Positions 19,319 through 32,000 of a DNA stretch of 32,000 nucleotides are shown in pieces. Position 1 is the stretch's first letter, and each line of letters starts with the position of its first letter. The stretch is from an uncultured archaeon. Its GTDB lineage: Archaea; Asgardarchaeota; Thorarchaeia; Thorarchaeales; Thorarchaeaceae. The notes beneath the pieces are model-generated. The model had not been told where the DNA came from. It ran no database searches and saw nothing but the letters and a program-made list of their open reading frames with translations. The DNA is taken from NCBI GenBank assembly GCA_964354495.1, contig CAYHAA010000021.1, forward strand, positions 1 through 32,000, in the 5' to 3' direction. Position numbers and translations under genes: made by a program.

Positions 19319-20722
19319 ATGGAGTACAAACATCCTTGGATTCCGATTACCAAGACAACAGAGGAAGAAATGCTCACCTCTATTGGAAAGAAGAGCCTGG
19401 AGGACCTATTCTGCAATATTCCTGCTCAGTTCAGGGTCAAGCGTAATCTAGATCTTCCCGAATCCCATACTGAGTTCGATGTCACAAGAAGAATACAGGA
19501 ACTCGCAGGCAAAAACATGCCCGCCTCTGATGGCAATGTCTTCCTTGGATCTGGAGTCAGTATGCATTATATTCCGACAGTAGTACCTGCGTTGTCAGGC
19601 CGGTCCGAGTTCGTCACATCCTATACAAGTTACCAACCTGAGATAAGTCAGGGCATGCTACAGACTCTATTTGAGTATCAGAGTCTATTGGCCGAGATTC
19701 TACAGATCGATGTTGTGAACTCCTCTATGTACGACATGGCGACTGCAGTAGCAGAGGCAGCGCGGATGACAGCCCGAGTGAACAAGAACCGCACGAAATT
19801 CCTTGTCCCTGGCACAATCAATCCGGAGCACTACAGGGTCATCCATACCTATACTGAGCCTGCTGGCATTGATGTCATCAAAGTGGATTTCGACAAGGGC
19901 ACAGGGCTCATGTCGCTCTCGAACCTAGAATCAAAACTTGATGATGGTGTGGCTGGCGTCTACGTTGAGAATCCCAGTTATTTGGGATTCATCGAGACTC
20001 AAGTGGATGATATCGCGCGACTGGTACACGAAAAGAACTCCCTGTTTGTAGCCGGGGTCGATATTCTCTCCTTAGGGATTCTAAGGCCTCCTGGCGAATA
20101 TGATGCAGACATCGTTGTTGCGGAGGGGCAACATCTTGGCTCACCTGTCAGCTACGGTGGCCCCTTACTTGGCATCTTCGGATGCAAGAATGACCGCAAG
20201 TTAGTCTACCAGATGCCAGGTCGTCTTGTTGGTATGACGCGGACACAAGAGGAGCCCTATGAGGATGGTTATGTTCTGACACTCAGTCCGCGAGAACAGC
20301 ATATTCGCAGAGAGAAAGCGACAAGTAACATCTGCTCCAATCAGGCTCTTGCCGCAGTGACTGCAGCTATCTACATGTCAGTCCTTGGTCCCACTGGACT
20401 AGAGACCCTTGGAGAGACCATTGCACAGAAATCCAACTATGCTGCCAAACGACTGGGCACTCTCACGGGTGTCAAGTCTCCTGCTATTGGTGAGTTCATC
20501 TGGAAGGAGTTTGTCGTGCAGTTTGAAGCTGGTATCACCGCAAGGCAAGTACATGAAAACTTGCTAAAACAGGGAATTCAGGGAGGAAAGATCCTGTCTG
20601 ACGAATTTCCTGAGCTGGGCGAGTCAATGTTGTTCTGTGTGACTGAGATACACAGCCAGAAGGACATAGACACTCTGGTCAAAGCGGTTGAGGGAATTGT
20701 TGCAGAGGGAGGTGTACAGTAA
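19319..20722 (+). CDS. gcvPA: Glycine dehydrogenase (decarboxylating) subunit 1
   Basis: HPWIP, TSYTSYQPEISQGMLQTLFEYQS, NSSMYD, REQHIRREKATSNICSNQAL; start moved to ATG 19319. Confidence 0.95.
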   Translation: MEYKHPWIPITKTTEEEMLTSIGKKSLEDLFCNIPAQFRVKRNLDLPESHTEFDVTRRIQELAGKNMPASDGNVFLGSGVSMHYIPTVVPALSGRSEFVTSYTSYQPEISQGMLQTLFEYQSLLAEILQIDVVNSSMYDMATAVAEAARMTARVNKNRTKFLVPGTINPEHYRVIHTYTEPAGIDVIKVDFDKGTGLMSLSNLESKLDDGVAGVYVENPSYLGFIETQVDDIARLVHEKNSLFVAGVDILSLGILRPPGEYDADIVVAEGQHLGSPVSYGGPLLGIFGCKNDRKLVYQMPGRLVGMTRTQEEPYEDGYVLTLSPREQHIRREKATSNICSNQALAAVTAAIYMSVLGPTGLETLGETIAQKSNYAAKRLGTLTGVKSPAIGEFIWKEFVVQFEAGITARQVHENLLKQGIQGGKILSDEFPELGESMLFCVTEIHSQKDIDTLVKAVEGIVAEGGVQ

Positions 20723-22287
20723 TGAGTAGTCACCGTCCAGTTGATTCTGGTGTACGGCAAGCAAAGTGGATTGAACCGCTTCTCTTTGAGCGTTCTAGTC
20801 CTGGAGTCATTGCCCATCAATTCCCTGTAGCAGAGGATGGCGTACGAAAAGCAGCAAGTCTCACCAAGATTCTTCCAAAGTCAATGCGGAGAACGACTCC
20901 TCCGAAGATACCTGAGGTGTCTGAACCAGATGTTGTTCGACACTTCACAAGGCTATCCCAGATGAATTATGCAGTCAGTCTAGGTACGTATCCCCTAGGA
21001 AGTTGCACCATGAAGTACAATCCCGAGCTGAACAACTGGGCAGCCATGCAACCCGGGTTCTCTTGGCTTCATCCACTTCAGGATGTCTCCACAGCTCAGG
21101 GTGCTCTTGAGATGATGTGGGACCTTGAACACTGGTTGGGCGAGATCACAGGCATGGACGCGGTCACACTGCAGCCTGCAGCAGGCGCTCAAGGCGAGTG
21201 GACTGGTGTGATGATGATGCGTGAGTATCATCGCTGTGTCACACACGAATGCGAACAGAGAAACGAGATGCTCATCCCAGATGCTGCACATGGGACGAAT
21301 CCAGCATCTGCTGCCATGGCTGGCTACAATGTTGTTGTGCTTCCTTCCAGCATGGAGGGGCTTGTCGATCTCGATGCTCTGAAGGCGGCCGCAGGCCCCA
21401 GAACCGCCGGACTGATGCTCACGAATCCCAACACAATTGGCGTGTTCGAGAAGAACATTGGCGAGATTGCAGGAATCGTTCATGATGCTGGTGGCCTCGT
21501 GTATTATGATGGAGCTAACTTCAATGCAATCATGCACAAGGTCCGACCTGGTGACATGGGCTTTGATGTGGTTCATCTCAATCTCCATAAGACGTTCTCG
21601 ACTCCTCATGGCGGCGGTGGCCCCGGAGCAGGTCCAGTGGGTGTCAAGAACAAGCTTGCTGAATTCTTGCCTGTACCCCGTATCATCAAGACCAAAGATG
21701 GATCCTTTGACTTGGACTACGATAGGCCGAGATCCATTGGGAAGGTAAAGTCATTCTATGGCAACTTCGGTGTGCTGGTCAGAGCCTATGCCTATGTTTA
21801 TTCACTCGGGAGGGAGGGTCTCAAGCGAGCCTCGGAAGTGGCGGTTCTCAATGCGAATTATATCGCCCACCATGTCAGAAAGATTCCTGGATTCACACTG
21901 CCCTTCTCTCAGGACGCTCCAAGGATGCATGAGTGCGTTATCTCTGCAGAAGAGCTGAAGGAAAAGACCGGAGTGACTGCGATGATGGTTGCAAAACGAC
22001 TTCTAGATTTCGGAGTTCACTCTCCTACTGTGTACTTTCCTCTGATTGTGCCTGAGGCACTCATGATTGAACCAACAGAGACAGAATCGAAGCAGGAGCT
22101 GGACTATTTCATCGAGGCTCTCCGCCAGATATCCAAGGAGGCACATGAGACCCCCGACAAGGTCAGCAGTGCTCCGCATTCTACGGCAGTTCGCCATCTT
22201 GACGAGTACAGGTCTGCCCATCCCAAGACCCTCACATTGTCCTACAAGATGTATCAGGAGAAACTCGCAGCCGGAGATGAGGAGTAA
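20722..22287 (+). CDS. gcvPB: Glycine dehydrogenase (decarboxylating) subunit 2
   Basis: YPLGSCTMKYNP, QPAAGAQGE, AHGTNPASA and PLP-lysine motif HLNLHKTFSTPHGGGGPG; ATG overlaps the gcvPA stop. Confidence 0.96.
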   Translation: MSSHRPVDSGVRQAKWIEPLLFERSSPGVIAHQFPVAEDGVRKAASLTKILPKSMRRTTPPKIPEVSEPDVVRHFTRLSQMNYAVSLGTYPLGSCTMKYNPELNNWAAMQPGFSWLHPLQDVSTAQGALEMMWDLEHWLGEITGMDAVTLQPAAGAQGEWTGVMMMREYHRCVTHECEQRNEMLIPDAAHGTNPASAAMAGYNVVVLPSSMEGLVDLDALKAAAGPRTAGLMLTNPNTIGVFEKNIGEIAGIVHDAGGLVYYDGANFNAIMHKVRPGDMGFDVVHLNLHKTFSTPHGGGGPGAGPVGVKNKLAEFLPVPRIIKTKDGSFDLDYDRPRSIGKVKSFYGNFGVLVRAYAYVYSLGREGLKRASEVAVLNANYIAHHVRKIPGFTLPFSQDAPRMHECVISAEELKEKTGVTAMMVAKRLLDFGVHSPTVYFPLIVPEALMIEPTETESKQELDYFIEALRQISKEAHETPDKVSSAPHSTAVRHLDEYRSAHPKTLTLSYKMYQEKLAAGDEE

Positions 22288-22322
22288 CTTCTCTTCAGAC
22301 CAAAAGAATTAGAGGTCAGTTC

Positions 22323-22709
22323 ATGCATAACAGAGTGATGATTCTCGAAAGAAAGGCAGGTCGTCACTCTATATTCCTTGAGGCAAAGGATGTTGGTAAC
22401 GACCTCCTGATAACTATCTACGGCGGAGATGAGCACCATCTTGGTGGAGTTTCTGTGGCATACGAGGCCAAGAGCCACTATAGAAACACCTCAACAGTGA
22501 GTATGAGCACCCTGACCTTTCCAGGCCACAAGGACTATCTGGTTTCAAACTCTGCTGCGGAGCAGATCTGCAAGGCTCTCAAGAGATCGACTGTTGTAAC
22601 GACTGGGATCCATTACAATAATGCGACGAAGGGCGAGATTGACGCCATCATCAAGGCTGTCGACTGGCTAACGAAGGAACTAATTTCGCACTATCAAAAG
22701 GCTGAATAG
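22323..22709 (+). CDS. LpdD / proteasome-assembly-chaperone-like (PAC-like) protein
   Basis: GNDLLITIYGG.EHHLGGVSVA...TFPGHKD...VVTTGIHYNNATKGEI matches my recollection of this family. Confidence 0.6.
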   Translation: MHNRVMILERKAGRHSIFLEAKDVGNDLLITIYGGDEHHLGGVSVAYEAKSHYRNTSTVSMSTLTFPGHKDYLVSNSAAEQICKALKRSTVVTTGIHYNNATKGEIDAIIKAVDWLTKELISHYQKAE

Positions 22710-22740
22710 CACACCTTGAAAGGCGTCAGTGTGAAATCAG

Positions 22741-23022
22741 TTGCTCGTCAGATTCAAGTCCTTTGGACCGGTACGTAGGCTTCTTGGACACCAAGTGATA
22801 GAGGTGGATGTTCCGGATGGCTCCACGGTCCTTCAGGTCATTCAAAAAGTGGTCGAACGGGGTGGAGAAGGTCTTCGGGACTTGGTGTTAGAGAACGGGA
22901 ACGTTGGTGGCAATCTAATCGTCATGCTCAACAAGAGGGACGTAGCTACTCTGGGTGGTACAGCAATTTCTGTCACAGAGGGCGACGAGGTGGCTCTGCT
23001 TCCTCACGTTCAAGGGGGTTGA
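22741..23022 (+). CDS. Ubiquitin-like MoaD/ThiS (SAMP/Urm1-like) protein
   Basis: 93-aa beta-grasp pattern (VRFKSFGP..., LIVMLNKRDV, EGDEVALLPHVQGG) ending in GG; TTG start. Confidence 0.88.
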   Translation: MLVRFKSFGPVRRLLGHQVIEVDVPDGSTVLQVIQKVVERGGEGLRDLVLENGNVGGNLIVMLNKRDVATLGGTAISVTEGDEVALLPHVQGG

Positions 23023-23032
23023 GCAACACCTG

Positions 23033-24328
23033 ATGGCAATCTCATTCTATCTAGAAACCTATGGTTGCTCTCTGAATTCAGCTGATTCTGATGTCATGAT
23101 TGGGCGCTTGAGAGAGATCGATGCTCAGAGCGTGGAGGACATCGAACAATCAGATGTGGTCATTCTAAACACGTGTGGTGTGAAAGAACCCACTGAGGAT
23201 CGGATTATACACAGGTTGGAAGAGCTAGGTGAAGGTACAAGACCTGTGATTGTGACGGGATGTCTGCCTAAGATCTCCCTTGCGCGAATTAGAGAGGCGA
23301 TTCCTGACTATGCTGCAATACTGGGCCCCCAAGCCACTGAATCCGTGAATGAGATAGTATTGAGAGTACTGAGCGGAGAGAGAGGCATTCTGCATCTGGA
23401 ATCCACAGATGTGTCTAAGCTGAGATGGCTCGAGTCTCCCGGAAAAGGTGTCATCTGCACTGTCCCCATCTGCGAGGGCTGCCTAGGCAACTGCTCCTAT
23501 TGCGCAGTCAAGTTTGCAAGGGGCCGGGTCAAGAGTCATTCGGAGATGGAGATCTGCCTTGCCATCCAGAAATGCACACGAGCTGGATACCGCGAAATTC
23601 GCCTCACATCTCAAGATCTTGGAGCTTACGGCACTGACATAGGTAGTGACCTTGTTACATTGATGCGAAGAGTTGACGAGATACCGGGGCAACATATGTT
23701 CAGGCTTGGAATGTTCAACCCGAATCTTGTTGCTGATTCTATTAGCGATCTTCTTCGCGTCATGAGGTCCGACCACTTCTTCAAGTTCTTTCATGTTCCT
23801 CTGCAGTCCGGTAGCGACACGATTCTCCATGCTATGGGTCGGCTATATACCCTAAACGATTGGGAATGCATCATTAGGACAATCCGAGAGCACTTCAGTG
23901 ATGCCACGATTGCAGCAGACATCATCGTCGGTTTTCCTGGTGAGTCTAAGGAAGACTTTGAGCTTACAATGGAAGCGATTCAAAGAGTACGACCGCCAAT
24001 TGTCAATATATCCAAGTATGGTGACCGCCTTGGCACAGCAGCATCCAAGTCCAGCAACAAGATAGAGACATCTGTGAAGAAACAACGAAGCCGTCGGCTC
24101 ACGACGCTTGTGAACAAGATACAACTTGAGGACAATGAGTCCTGGGTGGGATGGTCTGGTCCAGTCATTGTCAGTGAGAGGGGATCACGAGGCGGCCTTC
24201 TCTGCCGGACCCCCTCATACAGACCTATTATCATTCATGATGACTTACAGCTTGGGTCAATCATTGACGTACGAGTGACGAGAGCTGAACGGACTCATCT
24301 CATTGGCGAAACTATCTATTCCGCTTGA
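23033..24328 (+). CDS. mtaB: tRNA methylthiotransferase, MiaB-like (archaeal MtaB/CDKAL1 type)
   Basis: UPF0004 motifs ETYGCSLN, LNTCGVK, VTGCL; radical SAM CLGNCSYC; HVPLQSGS; DIIVGFPGE; C-terminal TRAM domain. Start moved to ATG 23033. Confidence 0.88.
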   Translation: MAISFYLETYGCSLNSADSDVMIGRLREIDAQSVEDIEQSDVVILNTCGVKEPTEDRIIHRLEELGEGTRPVIVTGCLPKISLARIREAIPDYAAILGPQATESVNEIVLRVLSGERGILHLESTDVSKLRWLESPGKGVICTVPICEGCLGNCSYCAVKFARGRVKSHSEMEICLAIQKCTRAGYREIRLTSQDLGAYGTDIGSDLVTLMRRVDEIPGQHMFRLGMFNPNLVADSISDLLRVMRSDHFFKFFHVPLQSGSDTILHAMGRLYTLNDWECIIRTIREHFSDATIAADIIVGFPGESKEDFELTMEAIQRVRPPIVNISKYGDRLGTAASKSSNKIETSVKKQRSRRLTTLVNKIQLEDNESWVGWSGPVIVSERGSRGGLLCRTPSYRPIIIHDDLQLGSIIDVRVTRAERTHLIGETIYSA

Positions 24329-25313
24329 CCTCTATCTTGACGACCTTGCCCGTCTTGGTGCTCTCTCGCGCAGCCTCAACGATCTCGAGTGCAGTGAGCG
24401 CATCATCGATGCTCACTCTTGGCGTTTTCTTTGTCTTCACACAGACGGCAAAGTCATTGAGCACCTCTCTTACGGGCTCCCCATAGACTTTGATTGTTGC
24501 GCCTCGCTCAGGAAGCTTGATGGTATCGCCTGCAGCCATGGGCTCTTGGTCAAGGTGCTGTACCTTTATGATTTGACTGAACAGATCGAGCACCAATGAC
24601 CCCTTGGTCCCTGAGACATCCATGTACCTTCTTCTACCTGTATACTGCCGTGATAAAAGGAAGACATGTTGGGCGCCAGATTCGAAGTCGACCATAACTG
24701 TGCCACTATTGTAGACTCCCCTCTCTATCTTGCTCTGGGCATACAGGTTCGCGTGGCCCTGACTGATACGCGCCATGATGTCAAAGTCATGTACGCCGAT
24801 ATCCTCGTATACATCACCAAGGGATGATATCCTAGAAGGCTCAACAAAACCGCGACGATCGTGTATCACAGTTAACGGAGTACCGATAGCATCTGTCTGA
24901 ATGAGGGACAAAGCTTTGCTTACGATGGGGTTGTATATTTCCGAATGTGATACTAGAGTGACAATTCCCCTCTTCTTGAGTATCTCAGCCACCCTCTTCC
25001 CATCCTCGAGGGAGCTTGCGAAGGGCTTCTCAATAAGCAACCCTCGAATTCCCTTATACTCCGAAGCTATCTGCTCCGTAATCGATGCGTGTGTTGAAGT
25101 GGGTGTAGAGATAACCAGAGCCGTCGGATTTGCATTTTCAATGAGGCTCTGAAAGCTGTCAAAGGCTGGGACATTGTACATCGTCGCAACCCTCTTGGCT
25201 GTTTCCTTGTCTGTATCAGCAATACCAACCAGGACACCCATATCACTGAGAATACGCGCATGGATGCTGCCCATATTCCCTGTGCCCACGATGCCAATCT
25301 TCAAGGACTTCAT
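24312..25313 (-). CDS. Gfo/Idh/MocA family NAD(P)-dependent oxidoreductase
   Basis: IGIVGTGNMG Rossmann motif, STPTSTH, IEKPF, DIGVHDFD. Confidence 0.92.
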   Translation of the reverse strand: MKSLKIGIVGTGNMGSIHARILSDMGVLVGIADTDKETAKRVATMYNVPAFDSFQSLIENANPTALVISTPTSTHASITEQIASEYKGIRGLLIEKPFASSLEDGKRVAEILKKRGIVTLVSHSEIYNPIVSKALSLIQTDAIGTPLTVIHDRRGFVEPSRISSLGDVYEDIGVHDFDIMARISQGHANLYAQSKIERGVYNSGTVMVDFESGAQHVFLLSRQYTGRRRYMDVSGTKGSLVLDLFSQIIKVQHLDQEPMAAGDTIKLPERGATIKVYGEPVREVLNDFAVCVKTKKTPRVSIDDALTALEIVEAARESTKTGKVVKIEVKRNR

Positions 25314-25516
25314 ATCTTTTCAATCCTGTCCGGCTGTGACTGCCTGCGTGCTTATCCTGCTTTATACATTACCATAGTTCCACTAATTGTACCTGAATCA
25401 TTGATATATCAATTAGAGTGCATTTGGAACCCGAAAATCGTCGCCCGTTTGTATTATGACCTTATATCTCATGCAGTGCACTGATTGTCGTATCAAAGTA
25501 CTACACCCACACCCTA

Positions 25517-25729
25517 TTTGGGAATCCTCAGAGTGTCACTGACTCTTTGACACTTGAATAACAACCCCTCCCTCGGACCCACCCGTGGACGCAGCATGGA
25601 TCTGCCTCTATCGTGCTGTGGGTGGGTCCTCCCAAAATGCCCACGCCTCGTCTGAAGACTTGGTCTTCTGCTAACCCATCATCATGAAGGGAATAGGCGA
25701 GAATTCCTACTATCAGTTGTCGTGACAAC
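25517..25729. ncRNA. Candidate structured RNA in a long intergenic region (family and strand unknown)
   Basis: Nested complementary segments: TTTGGGA/TCCCAAA, AGTGTCA/TGACACT, GGACCCACCC/GGGTGGGTCC, CGCCT/AGGCG, GAAGAC/GTCTTC, GTTGTC/GACAAC. Confidence 0.3.
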
Positions 25730-25909
25730 AGCCGCTGTCCACAAGTTCATAAGGAGTCACTCTGCAGAAACGTACTGCAGGTATACACGAAGCGAGAAGC
25801 GTTTTCTATAGTCGGAATTGTCGAGACTCTTTTTTAGGGCATCGCAAATTTCACAGAAGCACACAGTAGTTTTGAAGACTTGCAAATCGCATTTAGCGAG
25901 TGAACAACA

Positions 25910-26491
25910 ATGAATTATGACGAACAAGAGCCTATTGAGGCTACAGTGGCAGAACTAAAGCCACAGATGAAGAATGTCACCACTCATTTCAAGGTGATCA
26001 GTAAGGGCGAAGAGCGTGAGATTGAGTCCCGTAATGACGGAGCAACTCACCGTGTCTGTGATATCACTGTCGGTGATACGAGCGGAACTGTTCAGGTCCC
26101 TCTCTGGGATGAGGTTATCGATAGCATCGAAGAAGGTGCTACCTACAATCTGACCAATGGATACACTGGTCTCTTTCGAGGTAACCTACGATTAAATGTT
26201 GGTAGGTACGGTAAACTCGAGAAGGCTGCAGAAGCCATCGAAGATGTCAACATGGACGTCGATATGTCCGCTGAAGAGCACGAAGATGACCGACCCCGTA
26301 GGAGCTATGGCGGCGGTGGCGGCTATGGCGGAGACCGACGTGGTGGTGGCGGTGGTGGCGGTGGCTACGGTGGAGATCGTCGCGGTGGCGGCGGTGGTTA
26401 CAGTGGCCGAAGTAGCGGTGGCTACGGTGGAGATAGGCGAGGCAGTGGCGGCTACGGTGGTAGCGGCGGCGACAGGCGTCGCAGAGACTAG
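25910..26491 (+). CDS. ssb: Single OB-fold ssDNA-binding protein (SSB/RPA-like) with a Gly/Arg/Tyr-rich tail
   Basis: VAELKP...V...VGDTSGTVQVPLWD...NGYTGLFRGNLRLNVGRYG OB-fold pattern of crenarchaeal-type SSB, then an acidic linker and a low-complexity tail. Confidence 0.85.
   Translation: MNYDEQEPIEATVAELKPQMKNVTTHFKVISKGEEREIESRNDGATHRVCDITVGDTSGTVQVPLWDEVIDSIEEGATYNLTNGYTGLFRGNLRLNVGRYGKLEKAAEAIEDVNMDVDMSAEEHEDDRPRRSYGGGGGYGGDRRGGGGGGGGYGGDRRGGGGGYSGRSSGGYGGDRRGSGGYGGSGGDRRRRD
26306..26488 (+). repeat. Low-complexity coding repeat (GGDRR x4 within poly-Gly/Tyr)
   Basis: YGGGGGYGGDRRGGGGGGGGYGGDRRGGGGGYSGRSSGGYGGDRRGSGGYGGSGGDRRRRD, with varied codons. Confidence 0.9.
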
Positions 26492-26653
26492 ATTCCAAAC
26501 TTAGATACGATTTACAGCAGCAATAGCTGTTCGATTGTGGGTAATCAATAGTGATTACTCACAAATCCTTCTTTTTTAGTTCGAATATCTGAAACAAATC
26601 TTGGCACTTTTTCTCTCATATCCCTATAGAACGGAATGGAGACAACGAGCAGA

Positions 26654-26682
26654 TGGTGCTGAGGGTGAGTTTTGAGCTCGCG
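26654..26682 (-). repeat. Degenerate copy of the tRNA-Leu 3' end (att-like), distal
   Basis: tggtgctgagggtgagttttgagctcgcg vs 27957-27985 tggtgcggagggcgagatttgaactcgcg: 25/29 identical. Confidence 0.8.
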
Positions 26683-26699
26683 AAGACCAGAACCTTGTT

Positions 26700-27203
26700 C
26701 TATCCACACTCGTGGATTATGATACTGTAGACGAACTGCACTGGTAGATTGAGCGGATGATCACTAATCTTGATGATCTGATACGGATATGTCATGACTG
26801 TCAGAAGAATACATCCTTCACCGGGATGCGTTTCGTCAATGTAGACCACATAATACTCGTCAGTCATAATGATGTGTGTGATGTTCGTCAAATATCCAGA
26901 TGATTCACGTTCTCCTTGGAATACAGCAACAAGCATCGTTGAGGTGAAGTTGACGATTGGCACCTCTGGTATGGGGTCATGTCCACTGTACAGTTCTAGC
27001 CAGAGGCTCTCCCAAGCTGTTGCATTTGTAATAGTGAAATTGGCTCTCTGTTCATAATTGTAGCCTCCACCAGGGTCAATCACCTCGAATGATATCTCAG
27101 TGCCAGAGAGAAAGCCGAGGTTAGGTCCTGCCAGTACTAGAAAAGAGACCGCCAAGACAGCACAAACTGCAGTTCCTACAAGAGCTCTAGATAGAGTTTC
27201 CAT
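26700..27203 (-). CDS. Membrane-anchored/secreted protein with a PrcB C-terminal-like domain
   Basis: N-terminal hydrophobic helix; PIVNFTSTMLVAVFQGERESSGY...HPGEGC..LTVMTYPYQIIKI resembles protease complex subunit PrcB family proteins. Confidence 0.72.
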   Translation of the reverse strand: METLSRALVGTAVCAVLAVSFLVLAGPNLGFLSGTEISFEVIDPGGGYNYEQRANFTITNATAWESLWLELYSGHDPIPEVPIVNFTSTMLVAVFQGERESSGYLTNITHIIMTDEYYVVYIDETHPGEGCILLTVMTYPYQIIKISDHPLNLPVQFVYSIIIHECG

Positions 27204-27235
27204 GGACTCCGCGCTCGTACGATATATGCCATGAC

Positions 27236-27247
27236 GATATATAAAAC
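27236..27247 (-). promoter_or_regulatory. TATA box of the PrcB-like cassette gene
   Basis: GTTTTATATATC on the minus strand about 33 nt upstream of ATG 27203. Confidence 0.55.
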
Positions 27248-27341
27248 AGTAATATCCTCTGCAACGCAGATTCGTACCACATGCTCAGCAGCAGGTAGGT
27301 CGTCTAGTGTTCTCTCTACAGTCTTCTGACAGAAGCAATGA

Positions 27342-27364
27342 TGGTGCGGAGGGCGAGGTTTGAA
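27342..27364 (-). repeat. Copy of the tRNA-Leu 3' end (att-like), proximal
   Basis: tggtgcggagggcgaggtttgaa vs 27957-27979: 22/23 identical, including the CCA end. Confidence 0.88.
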
Positions 27365-27385
27365 TAGAAGAATACGCCATCTTAA

Positions 27386-27829
27386 TCAAGTGTAGGATGT
27401 TCTATTGATGGTGCCGCAATAGGAACACTTCATTGCTGTTCTACCATCCATCATCTCTAGAGGTGCACCGCAGTTTTCGCAGTGAAGGTATCTCTTGTCA
27501 AACGCCTTATCAATGCGCCTTGAATCTCTGGGAACTTTCTTCCTTGCTCTTCTAGCCGCTGACACCCTTGACACGCTTATGATGAGTGGACATAACGCAA
27601 TAATCACGAAGAGGGCTCCCACAACCTCTGCAGTGTATACAATATCAGAATACAATCGGAGTTGGGGGTCATAGGTTGGCAGCGAGATGACTGCGATAAT
27701 TCATTGTGTTGGAAATAAGACTGCACCACAGAGTTCATCGCCTAAACTGTCGGCAACAGAACATGTCTTAGAACAATAGCTGCCCATCCAGTCGTCGCTC
27801 TCAGTAGTACCACACCATTTGCATCTCAT
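27386..27829 (-). pseudogene. Membrane protein with an N-terminal CxxC...YCSxxC Zn finger, two hydrophobic segments and a C-terminal Zn ribbon; one in-frame TGA
   Basis: ATG 27829 with GGGTGA RBS: MRCKWCG...YCSKTC...LFPTQ*IIAVISL...CENCGAPL...KCSYCGTIN; TGA at codon 43 (27701-27703) is in frame with the ORF-track 89-aa ORF. Confidence 0.72.
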
Positions 27830-27956
27830 CACCCTCTTCTTATCGACGGCAATGTAGTGCTTCTCTCTCCGCAATCAGACTCCCACTGAATGATATGTCT
27901 GAGATTTGATAAATTCTCCCTCTCCTCTATATGGTACCATTGGTTAGAAAAGAAAG

Positions 27957-28074
27957 TGGTGCGGAGGGCGAGATTTGAACTCGCGGACCCCTACGAGATT
28001 TCCCTGAGGCACACAAAATTGCCTTCATTAGGGACCTCAACCCTACGCCTTTGACCAGGCTTGGCAACCTCCGC
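27957..28074 (-). tRNA. tRNA-Leu (GAG) with a 30-nt intron at position 43/44 (27999-28028), CCA encoded
   Basis: GCGGAGG/CCTCCGC acceptor, TAGGG-TTGAGGT-CCCTA anticodon arm, long variable arm and T-arm; removing the BHB-defined 30 nt gives an 88-nt tRNA. Confidence 0.92.
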
Positions 28075-28659
28075 AGTAGAAGAGCTCATCCCATGAGGGT
28101 AATTCTCTCTCCCTTTTGCATCGGTGATAAGCATTTCTGTTGACGGTCCTCGCTGGGTGAAGATGCATCATTGAAGATCGTTGCACTTGTTGAAACAGCA
28201 ACAGTTCTGCAAAAACGAGGGTTTCTGGAACAGAGGGAGTCACGATAAAGCGACAGTTCGATCTGTTCTCATGTGTTCGACTACTCTAATTAGCGAGTAG
28301 TACCGGCAAGCCACTCAAACAGGCTTGATTTTGTCCTGTTCTGTCTCTCTCTCTTGTTCTTCTTATCGTTCATTTTGTTTTTTCACCTTGTATCCATAAA
28401 GGTTCGTGAGAATATGTATAAGGATGATGGATTCTGCACAGACTTCAGAACCATACTTTTGGAGAACTCTAAGGGCTTCCTTGTCCTGTGCCTTCCTCAC
28501 CCTTCAAAACCGCTTCAGAAAGTAAACATGGGCTCCAACCACTCAAAAAGACTATGCGTGCGATTTACTCATATGTAAGTGATATGTTGTTCACGTGTGG
28601 TGGGTTGTATCATTGCGTTTGAGATTTCACCACTGCTTCTGGCACTTGAGGTGGAATGA

Positions 28660-29250
28660 ATGAAGTCGGAGCATGTGGTTATTGCTCTCTTCTTGTTGGC
28701 AGGCGTTATCAGCTTGTTCTACACTCCACATTACTTTTACGACGCAGTGGGACCTTTCGAACCAGAGGATACCGAATCCAGTATCTCAATTGCCCAAGGT
28801 GGCACACGGCTTATCACTGTCTTTTACAATGACACTTAGCATAATCTGCCAATAGCAAACGCTACAATATCTGTCAACAACACTCGCCCGGACGTTGTAG
28901 AGGTCATATCAGCGCTTCCAGATCCGAATCGTACAGGATACTACATTGTTGCCATATGTGGCAAGACGCAAGGTACCGCATGGCTCACAGTATCTCTCAG
29001 CAAGTCAGGATATGATTTGCAGAGCTATACAGTTCAAGTCGAGGTGTTTCAATATTGGACCCCAGGGCCTCGCCCACCAACTTTCGGTTTGCCAGCTTTG
29101 CTCCTCGTAATCATTTGTGTTGTTTTCTATAATAGACGGTCCAAGAAGAGGAGGAGTGCAGAGAAGCCAGATGAAACATCTGCAGCCGAATCTTCCGAGC
29201 CCTCAATTACTCCAAATGATGAAGAAGGCCTCAATGGAGAACAGATATGA
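28660..29250 (+). pseudogene. Membrane-anchored surface protein (Ig-like domain) with one in-frame TAG
   Basis: ATG 28660 after GAGGTG: MKSEHVVIALFLLAGVISLF...VFYNDT*HNLPIANATISV...LSKSGYDLQSYTVQV...ALLLVIICVVFYNRRSKKRR; TAG at codon 60 (28837-28839), otherwise open to 29250. Confidence 0.75.
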
Positions 29251-29253
29251 TGG

Positions 29254-29359
29254 TGGAGCCCCGGGTGGGATTCGAATTCGTGTCTTGATTCGAAATGGAC
29301 CAAGAACCCACGGCGTTCTGCTTACGAAGCAGACGCTATAACCGCTAAGCCACCGAGGC
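29254..29359 (-). tRNA. tRNA-Thr (CGT) with a 30-nt intron at position 53/54 (29277-29306), CCA encoded
   Basis: GCCTCGG/CCGGGGC acceptor, U73, TCTGC-TTCGTAA-GCAGA anticodon arm; removing 30 nt restores GTGGG-TTCGAAT-CCCAC and a 76-nt tRNA. Confidence 0.92.
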
Positions 29360-29388
29360 TCGACTGAGCGATGAGCCTCTCTAATCTC

Positions 29389-29404
29389 TAATAAAACTTT
29401 ATCA
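29389..29404. promoter_or_regulatory. Back-to-back TATA elements for tRNA-Thr and thiL
   Basis: TAATAAAAC (GTTTTATTA on minus, about 30 nt before tRNA-Thr) overlaps AAAACTTTATCA (about 35 nt before the thiL ATG). Confidence 0.5.
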
Positions 29405-29438
29405 TGAAGCCCAACTTCATCATATTGAGGTTCCCATC

Positions 29439-30431
29439 ATGAAGGCAGGTGAATTAGGCGAACGTGGTTTCATTGCCAGTGTACGCACTTACGTCAATAT
29501 GGTCAAGGGTGCAAGACTTGCTTTTGATGATGATGCGTCAGACTTTCCTATTACTGATGATCTGAATCTGGTTGTGAATATTGACACCTTTGTTCGTAAG
29601 ACGGACTGGCTGCCAGGAATGACAGCGGCACAGGTTGGTCGGAAGACTGCGGTCATGACTCTGAGTGACCTTGCCGCAAAGGGGGCAAAGCCAGTTTCTA
29701 CCATGCTATCCCTGTGTGTACCGGAGAACTATGATGCTGCGGAGGCAAGTGAGCTAGTCCGCGGTTTCTCTGAATATGGGCTCAAGGCTGGCATCCCACT
29801 GATTGGTGGTGACACGGGTATGGCCTCTGATATCGTTCTCACTGGAGTGGCGATGGGAACTGCGCCTCCCAACGGGATCATTGCACGCAATGGTGCAAAG
29901 GTTGGTGATATCGTAGCAGTCACTGGTCCTTTCGGACTCACGTCTGTCGCATATGAGATACTGCTTCGTGAGGGGGTGGCCGAACCGGAACTTCGCGAAG
30001 AGGCACTTCTCGCCGCCTACAAGCCCGCCATCAATCTCGATATTGTTGCCGCTCTTGCTGCGAGAGGTGCAGTGACTGCCTCCATGGATAGCAGTGATGG
30101 TCTGGGGATTACGCTGAACACCATCGCAGAACAGAGCAAGGTCCGCTTTGTCATAGACCATCTGCCTGCTGCAAGAGGTATTGAGGAGTTTGCCCAGACC
30201 CACATGCTTGATGAGATGAAACTTGTCATGCAGGGCGGTGAGGAGTTCCTACTTGCCATAACAATCCCTACGTCAAAGTATGAAGAAGCAAATGACATTG
30301 CACAGTCAAAACAAGTCCCACTGATGAAGATAGGCAGTGTCCGGAAGGGGAAGGGAGTAGTCTACCAATCCTCTGAGGGACAGGTTACCATTCCTTCATC
30401 AGGCTATGATAACTTCAAGGAATGGCGATAG
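29439..30431 (+). CDS. thiL: Thiamine-monophosphate kinase
   Basis: GELGERGFI, DDDASD, NIDTFV, TLSDLAAKGAKP, IGGDT, MDSSDGL, GGEEFLL motifs. Confidence 0.93.
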   Translation: MKAGELGERGFIASVRTYVNMVKGARLAFDDDASDFPITDDLNLVVNIDTFVRKTDWLPGMTAAQVGRKTAVMTLSDLAAKGAKPVSTMLSLCVPENYDAAEASELVRGFSEYGLKAGIPLIGGDTGMASDIVLTGVAMGTAPPNGIIARNGAKVGDIVAVTGPFGLTSVAYEILLREGVAEPELREEALLAAYKPAINLDIVAALAARGAVTASMDSSDGLGITLNTIAEQSKVRFVIDHLPAARGIEEFAQTHMLDEMKLVMQGGEEFLLAITIPTSKYEEANDIAQSKQVPLMKIGSVRKGKGVVYQSSEGQVTIPSSGYDNFKEWR

Positions 30432-30452
30432 GTCTTAGATTGGTGATTGAGT

Positions 30453-32000
30453 ATGAAGGTGGATCGTGTCGCTCTAATCGATGGATATGTCGATGAGCCC
30501 ACATGTCTTGGTGTTCCACCATATGTCAGTACGTACCCTCGCTACATTGCGGGTGCAATCTGGACGAAGAGCCCATCCACGGAGATACTGTATCAGACAA
30601 TAGACCAAGTTCGGGTCAGCTTCACAGCCGCGCAACGGCTCTGGGCAAAGACCAATCTCATCATCCTGATAGCTGGAATGATAGTCCCTGGCAAGTATGT
30701 CGGAGGGACCCCTATATCGATTCGGGAGGCAAAGGAGCTCTTCTCATCACCTATCCTTGATCACATACCAAAGCTGCTAGTAGGGCCTTGGGCTCGATTT
30801 GGCTGCGGAATAGAGGGTGGAAGACTAGCTCTTGGGTCTGATGTGTTATCACCCCCATTCGAATTCATCGTGTCAGGAGACCCCGAGGTTGTAGTCAGCC
30901 AGGTTCTCGATGATGGCAACACGCTGGATTCCGCCGACTTGGGCATGGTCCGTTCAAGCTCTCAGGAGATTGAACACTTTATTGAGCGGGGCACACGCAT
31001 AGTCACCCAGCATCCAGGGTTTGACAAGAACTATATCATCTGCGAGATCGAGTCGTATCGAGGCTGCCCCCGATTTCTCACAGGAGGCTGCTCCTTCTGC
31101 GTTGAACCTTCATACGGTGAACCTCAGCAGAGGGCTTATTCAGCAATCGCTCAAGAGATAGCGGCTCTCAGCAGTCTGGGCATACGCGCCTTCAGAATTG
31201 GTCACCAGGCAGACCTGTTCACCTACGGTTCCACAGAGATGGGTGAGGAGGAGTTTCCCAGACCTAACCCAGATGCAATAGAGCACTTATTCTCAACGAT
31301 TCGTCATGCTGCTCCGACTATTGAAGTGCTGCATATTGACAATGTCAATCCTGGTACTATCGCACGTCACCCCAAGGAGTCAACTGCTGTCGCTAAGATC
31401 ATAATGAAGTACCACACCCCGGGCGATGTTGCTGCGTTTGGCGTGGAGTCAGTGGATCCTGAGGTAATCCGCAGGAACAATCTCAAGGCCGATGCTGATG
31501 AAGTACTGGATGCGGTCCGTCTTCTGAATGAGGTGGGAAGGACGCGGCCGCCCTGGGGTCTTCCACATCTTCTCCCGGGTATCAATCTTCTCTATGGGCT
31601 CCCAGGGGAGAGCAAGAAGACGCTGGAGTACAATCTGGTCTTCCTGCAAGAGCTTCTCAAGGAAGGTCTTCTGGTTCGCCGAATAAACATCCGGCAAGTG
31701 ATTGGACTTCCCGGGACCCGGATTGTAGAAGAGAGAGCAGGAAGGATTAGAAGAAATGAGTTTTACAGGCATCGAGAAGAGGTGCGTGATACCATCGATG
31801 TTGAGATGATCAAGCGGGTCGCTCCTCTGGGCACGATTCTCGAATCGGCCTTCATTGAGGTTGACGAGGCCAATCATTACCTGCTACGACAACTAGGAAC
31901 ATATCCACTGCTTTGTCATATGCCCAAAGGGAGAGAAGAAACAGGAAGACGGTCTGTCTTCGTTGTTGACCATGGACCAAGGTCTCTTACTGTACTCCCA
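30453..32000 (+). CDS. Radical SAM protein, COG1031-like (3' end beyond the window)
   Basis: Open from ATG 30453 to the window end: IDGYVDEPTCLGVPPYVSTYPRY, EIESYRGCPRFLTGGCSFCVEP (Cx7Cx2C), HIDNVNP, INLLYGLPGES, RRINIRQV. Missing from the ORF track because no stop codon falls in the window. Confidence 0.88.
   Translation, partial: MKVDRVALIDGYVDEPTCLGVPPYVSTYPRYIAGAIWTKSPSTEILYQTIDQVRVSFTAAQRLWAKTNLIILIAGMIVPGKYVGGTPISIREAKELFSSPILDHIPKLLVGPWARFGCGIEGGRLALGSDVLSPPFEFIVSGDPEVVVSQVLDDGNTLDSADLGMVRSSSQEIEHFIERGTRIVTQHPGFDKNYIICEIESYRGCPRFLTGGCSFCVEPSYGEPQQRAYSAIAQEIAALSSLGIRAFRIGHQADLFTYGSTEMGEEEFPRPNPDAIEHLFSTIRHAAPTIEVLHIDNVNPGTIARHPKESTAVAKIIMKYHTPGDVAAFGVESVDPEVIRRNNLKADADEVLDAVRLLNEVGRTRPPWGLPHLLPGINLLYGLPGESKKTLEYNLVFLQELLKEGLLVRRINIRQVIGLPGTRIVEERAGRIRRNEFYRHREEVRDTIDVEMIKRVAPLGTILESAFIEVDEANHYLLRQLGTYPLLCHMPKGREETGRRSVFVVDHGPRSLTVLP

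Follow-up and report, generated by a model that had tools for sequence, protein, structure and literature searches.

Among described systems, the locus reported here comes closest to accretion islands anchored on tRNA genes, of which the tycheposon islands are an example. In the streptococcal families of integrative and conjugative elements (ICEs) and integrative and mobilizable elements (IMEs), the cis-mobilizable elements (CIMEs) are flanked by attachment (att) sites, lack integrase and excisionase genes, and presumably depend for their movement on an integrase acting in trans; a cognate element that bears an integrase lies next to them in the same site or is their source. Integrons reportedly occur in Archaea, a finding attributed to Ghaly et al. 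2022. Tycheposons combine an integration module of ~1 kb, a replication module of 2 to 4 kb, and cargo of up to 10 kb or more, and they carry their own tyrosine or large serine recombinase; the Prochlorococcus islands contain integrase remnants (Hackl et al., bioRxiv 10.1101/2020.12.28.424599). Among the integrated elements of thaumarchaea, the smallest cryptic member measures 2.6 kb and encodes an integrase (PMC6563490). Here we describe a much smaller arrangement in a stretch of 32,000 nucleotides (hereafter, the window) from an uncultured archaeon of the family Thorarchaeaceae (positions 1 to 32,000 of contig CAYHAA010000021.1, forward strand; assembly GCA_964354495.1), in which a tRNA-Leu(GAG) gene is followed by two short units, each closed by a copy of the end of the tRNA gene. 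The locus is very probably a tRNA-anchored row of integrase-less, mostly single-gene cassettes. Such arrays are not described in the searchable literature on Asgard mobile elements and Asgard tRNA introns.

Cassettes of the window and their counterparts in relatives

The tRNA-Leu(GAG) gene that anchors the array (27957-28074, minus strand) encodes its CCA end and is interrupted in the variable-arm region by an intron of 24 nt. The gene was overlooked by ARAGORN under default settings and was recovered by ARAGORN with introns allowed and by the Rfam tRNA model RF00005 (48.4 bits at 27960-28074, minus strand). Its last 23 nt (27957-27979, minus strand; tRNA positions 54-76) cover the T-loop, the 3' strand of the T-stem, the 3' strand of the acceptor stem, and the CCA, and are followed by a pyrimidine-rich trailer. 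This 23-nt repeat recurs twice in the same orientation, at spacings of 615 and 688 bp. The middle copy (27342-27364, minus strand) is identical at 22 of 23 positions, the exception being U60, which is C; its one-mismatch match had no equivalent in 100 shuffles. The copy that ends the array (26654-26682, minus strand) matches at 25 of 29 positions, which include part of the 5' strand of the T-stem, or at 19 of 23 over 26654-26676, and is the most diverged of the three. No further copy with up to six mismatches was found in 20000-32000, including the region upstream of the SSB-like gene described below. The copies delimit a proximal cassette (27365-27956, minus strand; 592 bp, or 615 bp with one repeat) and a distal cassette (26683-27341, minus strand). 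The recurrence of the tRNA end, the 615- and 688-bp units, and the greater divergence of the distal repeat had all been proposed in an earlier, sequence-only reading of the window, and all three are borne out.

We compared the locus with its counterparts in related genomes and public metagenomes. The window genome (G000) is a metagenome-assembled genome (MAG) of 51 contigs that is 97.7% complete, and all of the genomes compared are MAGs, in which episomes may be missing and repeats can fragment, collapse, or mislead assemblies; counts across relatives are not independent. The closest relative, a Candidatus Thorarchaeota MAG (isolate OWC2; G012), lacks exactly positions 27365-27979 (i.e., one cassette plus one repeat), and its distal unit leads through a single 23-mer into the tRNA body. 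A 6.6-kb contig from a wetland metagenome (run X12) has the identical joint (27341 to 27957), with the proximal unit absent, and a second metagenome run, ~95% identical to the window, carries both units. Judged from these alignments, the difference between G012 and the window, be it a loss or a gain, arose exactly at the repeats. The simpler interpretation is that the G012 lineage lost the unit, because G006, G010, and G017 have homologues of the proximal cassette at this position. Across the genus, zero to at least four units of differing content, all of them closed by the 22- to 23-mer, are present between the SSB-like gene and tRNA-Leu(GAG), so that the variation in cassette number and content anticipated by the sequence-only reading was found when we looked for it. 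At 46 loci of the genus and 80 metagenome loci we encountered neither a fixed synteny free of repeats nor a large integrase-bearing element, and the interpretation as cassettes survives both comparisons.

The gene of the proximal cassette (27386-27874, minus strand) encodes a protein with a zinc-ribbon/membrane/zinc-ribbon layout, assigned on the basis of tblastn, clustering, and weak zinc-ribbon Pfam matches. It is a single frame of ~160 codons, interrupted by an in-frame TGA at 27701-27703 that leaves open reading frames (ORFs) of 57 and 89 aa; the downstream ORF (27386-27655) stops 21 bp before the middle repeat. When the intact homologues of 161 to 171 aa from the same slot in G006, G010, and G017 were used in tblastn, a single frame was recovered over the full length of the gene at 43 to 52% identity. 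Of three relatives, one has a Cys opposite the TGA, which is not conserved. Despite a tRNA-SeC predicted by ARAGORN in the window genome, the gene is probably a pseudogene. The distal cassette, shared with G012 at ~87% DNA identity, contains a PrcB_C gene (26700-27203, minus strand; Pfam PF14343, E 2.6e-10) for a protein of 167 aa with an N-terminal membrane/signal segment. Its stop lies 17 bp before the distal repeat, and a TTTTATATA stretch lies ~30-38 nt upstream of its start. Members of the PrcB family were placed by clustering in tRNA-Leu arrays of at least four other genomes, and PrcB_C was found in six ORFs of metagenome arrays. The earlier claim of one gene per unit on the tRNA strand, ending 17 to 21 bp before a repeat, thus holds in the window, with the correction that the proximal ORF is part of a TGA-split gene.

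The two cassettes of the window are old residents, one having acquired a nonsense codon while the outermost repeat decays. The synonymous divergence (dS) of the distal PrcB cassette from that of G012 is 0.43, against 0.3 to 0.66 for host genes, and both cassettes look vertically inherited within their clade. This inheritance would suit a locus without any mobility, in which the tRNA end was duplicated locally in tandem, or in which its copies act as RNA-level "punctuation" signals, with ordinary chromosomal genes between them; the tandem duplication of the SSB-like flank in G023 would suit it as well. The differences among close species described in the next section argue strongly the other way.

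The conserved distal border of the slot is an SSB-like OB-fold gene with a Gly/Arg/Tyr-rich tail (25910-26491, plus strand; Pfam PF21473). In G016 and G023, at loci L028:4094-5052 and L034, this gene is bracketed by repeat copies, G023 having two SSB copies in tandem, and many tandem SSB paralogues are present in the genus. Its dS between species is 0.5 to 0.9, far under that of neighbouring housekeeping genes. The border gene may itself be an old cassette.

Elsewhere in the window, a tRNA-Thr(CGU) gene overlooked by ARAGORN (29254-29359, minus strand; Rfam, 50.2 bits) has an insert of ~30 nt within its T-loop. Its downstream segment of 0.8 kb (28453-29249) contains two ORFs for small membrane proteins (28660-28839 and 29017-29250) and is replaced by ~75 bp in G012. 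Since no copy of the tRNA-Thr end bounds this segment, its variability is of another kind.

Arrays across the genus and movement of their cassettes

The tRNA-Leu GAG, TAG, and CAG genes all contain a 22-mer from this tRNA end, and same-orientation rows of the 22- to 23-mer follow them in all 28 genomes of the genus; the 22-mer is present in 2 to 18 copies per genome. The putative att, which the sequence-only reading had suggested seeking at other sites, is not confined to the window locus and stands behind other tRNA-Leu genes across the genus. Two or more repeat copies were also found at 32 of the 80 loci on public metagenome contigs. The 68 intervals that we sampled measure 241 to 4,014 bp (median, ~626 bp), and most carry one gene. 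Their cargo includes CxxCxxCC proteins, PrcB_C proteins, zinc-ribbon membrane proteins, GNAT proteins, an acyl-CoA thioesterase, alpha/beta hydrolases, JAB proteins, an OLD-family ATPase together with HEPN/AbiV, ketopantoate reductase (PanE), Mrr-like nucleases, and many unannotated membrane proteins. Approximately one third of the cassette genes share the strand of the tRNA gene, the other two thirds being antisense to it, so they are not co-oriented in the manner of integron cassettes, and the location of the gene on the tRNA strand, which had been read from the window, fails as a rule.

Those interval lengths bear on the possibility that large integrase-bearing viruses or plasmids integrated repeatedly and were each reduced to one gene. 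Tandem accretion with partial tRNAs is well known from tycheposon islands (bioRxiv 2020.12.28.424599) and archaeal elements (PMC6563490), and a few intervals of 2 to 4 kb with defence genes also speak for it. On the other side, 52 of the 68 intervals are shorter than 1 kb with a tight mode at ~450 to 690 bp; neither an integrase nor a fragment of one occurs on any array contig; one compact cassette (an ORF plus ~30 to 50 nt) was found intact in 12 genomes; and the displaced repeats are conserved rather than decaying. We consider this explanation, which the sequence-only reading had offered as its second option, unsupported and very improbable.

Evidence for movement comes from several comparisons. 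Cassette families recur at differing positions in the arrays and behind GAG, TAG, and CAG anchors. Two genomes separated by a dS of only 0.29 (G024 and G015) have no cassette in common. One family (88% amino acid identity) occurs in the GAG array of G022 and, in G016, behind a tRNA whose T-loop reads TCGAAT; there, the displaced copy keeps TCAAAT, from which we conclude that the cassette brought its own copy of the site. In the related genomes G020, G014, and G010 (host dS, 0.5 to 1.0), the CxxCxxCC cassette is at position 1, 3, and 3 from the tRNA, respectively, with differing cassettes in front of it, which fits addition at the tRNA side. The dS of this cassette is 0.27 to 0.59, far below that of the thiL, radical-SAM, and oxidoreductase genes of the same genomes (1.4 to saturation), an indication that it was transferred from species to species. 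Cassette families common to anchors of different kinds would argue for repeats derived from the target; the matches obtained in such a comparison were remote only (40%). On the evidence of these sequences, cassettes appear to have moved both among tRNA-Leu genes and among species. The reading without mobility is largely refuted by the differences in content and number between close species, by the families common to different tRNA-Leu genes, by the low dS of the CxxCxxCC cassette, by the antisense position of two thirds of the genes, and by the lack of excess folding around the copies (see below); we find it scarcely credible. An RNA-level origin, in which a tRNA 3' fragment joined to an mRNA would have been reverse-transcribed, was considered and rejected because two thirds of the cassette genes are antisense.

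In many cassettes, antisense genes begin no more than ~30 nt from the repeat (e.g., L026:1187-1240 and L032:7287-7340), and the junction …GATTTGA/TATRG… is common to several unrelated cassette families. The copy of the tRNA end and the first bases of the cassette may together form a promoter element.

The sister genera of the family contain the identical 22-mer, mostly in their three tRNA-Leu genes only; their 19 genomes yielded four tandem pairs, three of which hold single cargo genes and one a TnpB gene. In a genome of another genus (G164, L079:970-3577), a gene for a 558-aa TnpB-like protein (with a Cas12f1-like TNB domain) and ~540 nt of noncoding DNA lie between a complete tRNA-Leu(TAG) gene and a second, perfectly matching copy of the 3' part of that gene, 89 nt long and beginning in the anticodon stem; this displaced copy occupies the position expected for a TnpB guide. 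The idea of a TnpB guide was examined for the window and dropped, as the matches of at least 13 nt to 27301-28100 in the genome consist of tRNA-Leu paralogues and chance-level matches only; a 14-mer match on contig C5 falls within a coding gene. A 13-mer resembling the middle copy of the window occurs twice, 522 bp apart, at C10:12361-12895 of the same genome. In G020, many very short contigs (C181, C187, C190, C231, C264, C280, and C307) end at or near the 22-mer, which suggests that strain-level variation of the arrays breaks the assembly.

The repeat site and the catalyst

Every copy of the repeat is followed, after the CCA, by 8 to 10 pyrimidines, as are tRNA genes generally in the window genome, and the sequence of this tract varies from cassette to cassette. 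Each cassette thus has a tRNA trailer of its own at its start, which would follow from an earlier position directly behind a working tRNA. The direct repeats comprise the 3' part of the tRNA gene, and the tRNA is restored, as in integrative elements that target tRNA genes. Displaced copies show pairwise identities of 84 to 92%, compared with 0 to 73% for adjacent noncoding DNA and ~55 to 80% for cassette genes. Conservation is uneven within them: the block A58-C67 hardly changes across 83 displaced copies, in contrast to positions 55-57 and 68-75, which are variable. The 5' limit is mostly at position 54/55 in many unrelated cassettes, and longer versions exist. Mismatches grow with distance from the tRNA, from 0.46 to ~1.1, and the outermost copies have 1.46, against 0.65 for internal ones (p=0.03). 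No excess folding and no attC-like hairpins were detected when 68 displaced copies and their flanks were compared with shuffles (mean z, 0.05; 3% below -2); the repeat consists of one side only of a tRNA structure.

The 5' limit of the repeat is also the site of an interruption in some relatives. The tRNA-Leu(GAG) genes of G014, G013, and G018 (L029:6522-6680, L036:5202-5360, and L039:3449-3610) are interrupted by ~30 nt at the precise boundary of the T-stem 5' strand with the T-loop (53/54), so that the 23-nt unit is their 3' exon, and some displaced copies retain the end of the T-arm insert. The corresponding break in G024 and G001 is shifted onward by two bases, and the third tRNA-Leu gene of G000 (C1:103074-103197) breaks at ~58/59.

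We propose that each cassette enters in the form of a small, free, and probably circular molecule of DNA, comprising one gene and at least the last 22 to 23 nt of a tRNA-Leu gene, with a pyrimidine-rich tRNA trailer directly after that copy. It would be inserted by a single crossover within the stretch that it shares with the 3' end of the resident tRNA-Leu gene. The incoming copy would complete the tRNA and provide the trailer, and the previous end would be displaced downstream, where it closes the cassette. Repeated insertion would stack the cassettes, with the newest beside the tRNA, and recombination between adjacent copies would excise one cassette precisely, an event that could relate the G012 form to that of the window. 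We give this explanation as a whole (i.e., single-crossover insertion of small site-carrying DNAs by a catalyst acting in trans) an even chance of being right. For the catalyst itself, a trans function specific to the lineage is favoured because conservation is uneven inside the repeat and large arrays are confined to one genus; a site-specific recombinase would fit this role, either of a type not yet recognised or encoded on unbinned episomes, a step of which we are slightly less confident.

Several observations weigh against this proposal, most of them from searches for the enzyme. Tyrosine recombinases (PF00589) were found neither in G000, in which no XerA-type protein is therefore detectable, nor in 20 of the 28 genomes of the genus, and the 20 matches in the other eight are all on contigs without arrays, with no repeat beside them. 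The archaeal integrase family PF16795 has no match in G000. Cas1 (PF01867) was found in one of the 28 genomes and not in G000, a search that very divergent Cas1-like proteins would escape. The 22-mer has no match in IMG/VR, and no free or circular form was observed among the assembled contigs of public runs, no run holding more than 26% of the sampled 31-letter words of the locus and the parts that lack cover being uninformative. IS607-like small serine recombinases were rejected as the catalyst, being patchy across the family and present in 5 of 14 genomes of the genus. The site differs from classical tyrosine-recombinase core sites, as its 5' limit is variable (22, 23, 26, 31, or 89 nt) and an inverted-repeat partner of the T-stem is absent before most copies. 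The argument from low dS concerns a single cassette family, and the dS of the flanking SSB gene is also lowish, so that codon constraint may have contributed.

Within the arrays, the searches for a recombinase gave a uniform result. None was found among the cassette ORFs with Pfam and PHROGs, nor in the top 25 families of a Pfam tally of 135 metagenome ORFs; a phmmer search with ORFs of at least 150 aa from ten integrase loci of the genus detected no integrase among 1,856 ORFs at 126 array loci. The large unannotated cassette ORFs (222 to 551 aa) have no recombinase match in Pfam or PHROGs and resemble, by eye, membrane proteins or PD-(D/E)XK-like nucleases. No cognate integrase-bearing element at the same site was detected in the 28 genomes of the genus, the 80 metagenome loci, or IMG/VR, with the proviso that MAGs may miss episomes. 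From the sequences available, the cassettes thus appear to carry no recombinase gene of their own, and the tyrosine recombinase that the sequence-only reading had suggested seeking in the window genome was not found there. Two paralogous loci in that genome (C22:1-3224, L055, and C24:9437-12835, L056) encode a 200-aa serine recombinase of the MerR-HTH/resolvase type beside a conserved protein of 320 to 435 aa; they are probably IS607-like elements.

The same architecture could also arise with no dedicated enzyme, if small circles were excised and re-inserted by host homologous recombination or by synthesis-dependent strand annealing, and if the only fragments to survive were those that extend precisely to the 3' terminus of the gene and so leave it intact. 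This alternative is favoured by the failure to find a candidate enzyme (whether an integrase, Cas1, or a recombinase correlated with the arrays), by the variable length of identity (22 to 89 nt, a variation that counts against our proposal), and by the many different anchors. Other tRNA 3' ends stand in tandem in G000 (tRNA-Ala-like at three sites, C18:16265-18548; tRNA-Arg(TCT), 616 bp apart, C28:199-834), and a single sequence-specific enzyme would hardly account for such a number of sites. Nor is a special enzyme required for the exact removal of a unit flanked by direct repeats, as seen in G012. Against this alternative, 22 nt is at the lower limit for efficient homologous exchange. If host recombination sufficed, the sister genera, which have the identical 22-mer and in which RadA is presumed to be universal, should not be as poor in cassettes as they are. 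Neither the near-invariant 10-nt block and uneven conservation of the displaced copies nor the sharp 5' limit at 54/55, common to many unrelated cassettes, is readily accommodated by it. We regard host recombination as the main rival of our proposal, possible but less probable.

The apparent growth of the arrays at the anchor side resembles that of a CRISPR array, and casposons are known to target tRNA 3' ends (PMC6563490). A casposase-, Cas1-, or transposase-like enzyme making staggered cuts 22 to 23 bp apart could therefore be imagined, inserting arbitrary DNA as in the uptake of CRISPR spacers and duplicating its target. Such a duplication would have a fixed length, would copy the anchor faithfully, and would not supply each cassette with a trailer of its own. 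The repeats, in contrast, vary in length; a displaced copy may differ from its anchor at T-loop position 57, which distinguishes the tRNA-Leu genes; and the trailers are cassette-specific rather than duplicated. Terminal inverted repeats were not seen at the ends of the cassettes, and the rarity of Cas1 in the genus is a further point of disagreement. We hold target-site duplication to be even less probable than reduction from larger elements. Crossover within a shared site, mediated in trans, remains our preferred reading.

Comparison with known systems

At this locus and its counterparts across the genus, individual accessory genes are gained and lost behind a tRNA gene in a compact and recurrent manner, without any integrase in sight. 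If a new catalyst is at work here, or if host recombination acts on 22 to 23 bp, the arrays would fill in archaea the functional role of integrons, and they would partly explain the strain-level variability and the assembly fragmentation of these genomes. We tentatively suggest, as a broader and decidedly less certain view, that the genus possesses an integron-like platform for gene capture, which would target essential RNA genes at their 3' ends and would have either an undescribed catalyst or no dedicated recombinase, and that T-arm introns may be by-products of this process or a defence against it. The coincidence of the repeat boundary with T-arm intron positions in congeners provides a data set for the old idea that the interruption of tRNA genes interacts with the integration of mobile DNA.

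The resemblance to integrons lies in rows of mostly single-gene cassettes, each closed by a repeat that is like a recombination site, and apparently added at one end. The integron-like array of the sequence-only reading is accordingly apt for the architecture alone: there is no IntI and there are no folded attC hairpins, the genes face both directions, and the anchor is the end of a functional tRNA gene, where integrons have attI with a Pc promoter. Like CIMEs, the cassettes have att-type flanks and no recombination genes; unlike them, they have no cognate integrase-bearing element that we could find. Casposons and CRISPR arrays likewise grow from one side at a fixed position, which for casposons can also be the 3' end of a tRNA gene, whereas the fixed duplication length, terminal inverted repeats, and Cas1 that characterize them are lacking here. 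The elements integrated into archaeal tRNA genes (SSV/pNOB8-type and thaumarchaeal) are similar in that they repeat the 3' part of the tRNA gene directly, have short att sites, and can be integrated in tandem (PMC6563490), although the units here are several-fold smaller and contain no integrase. The closest parallel is with the tycheposon islands. The present units differ from tycheposons in size (mostly 0.25 to 1.4 kb), in having one gene and no recombinase or remnant of one, and in belonging to a genus mostly without tyrosine recombinases; they share with the islands the tRNA anchor, the partial tRNA 3' ends between units, the apparent displacement of older units by newcomers, and a cargo of accessory and defence genes.

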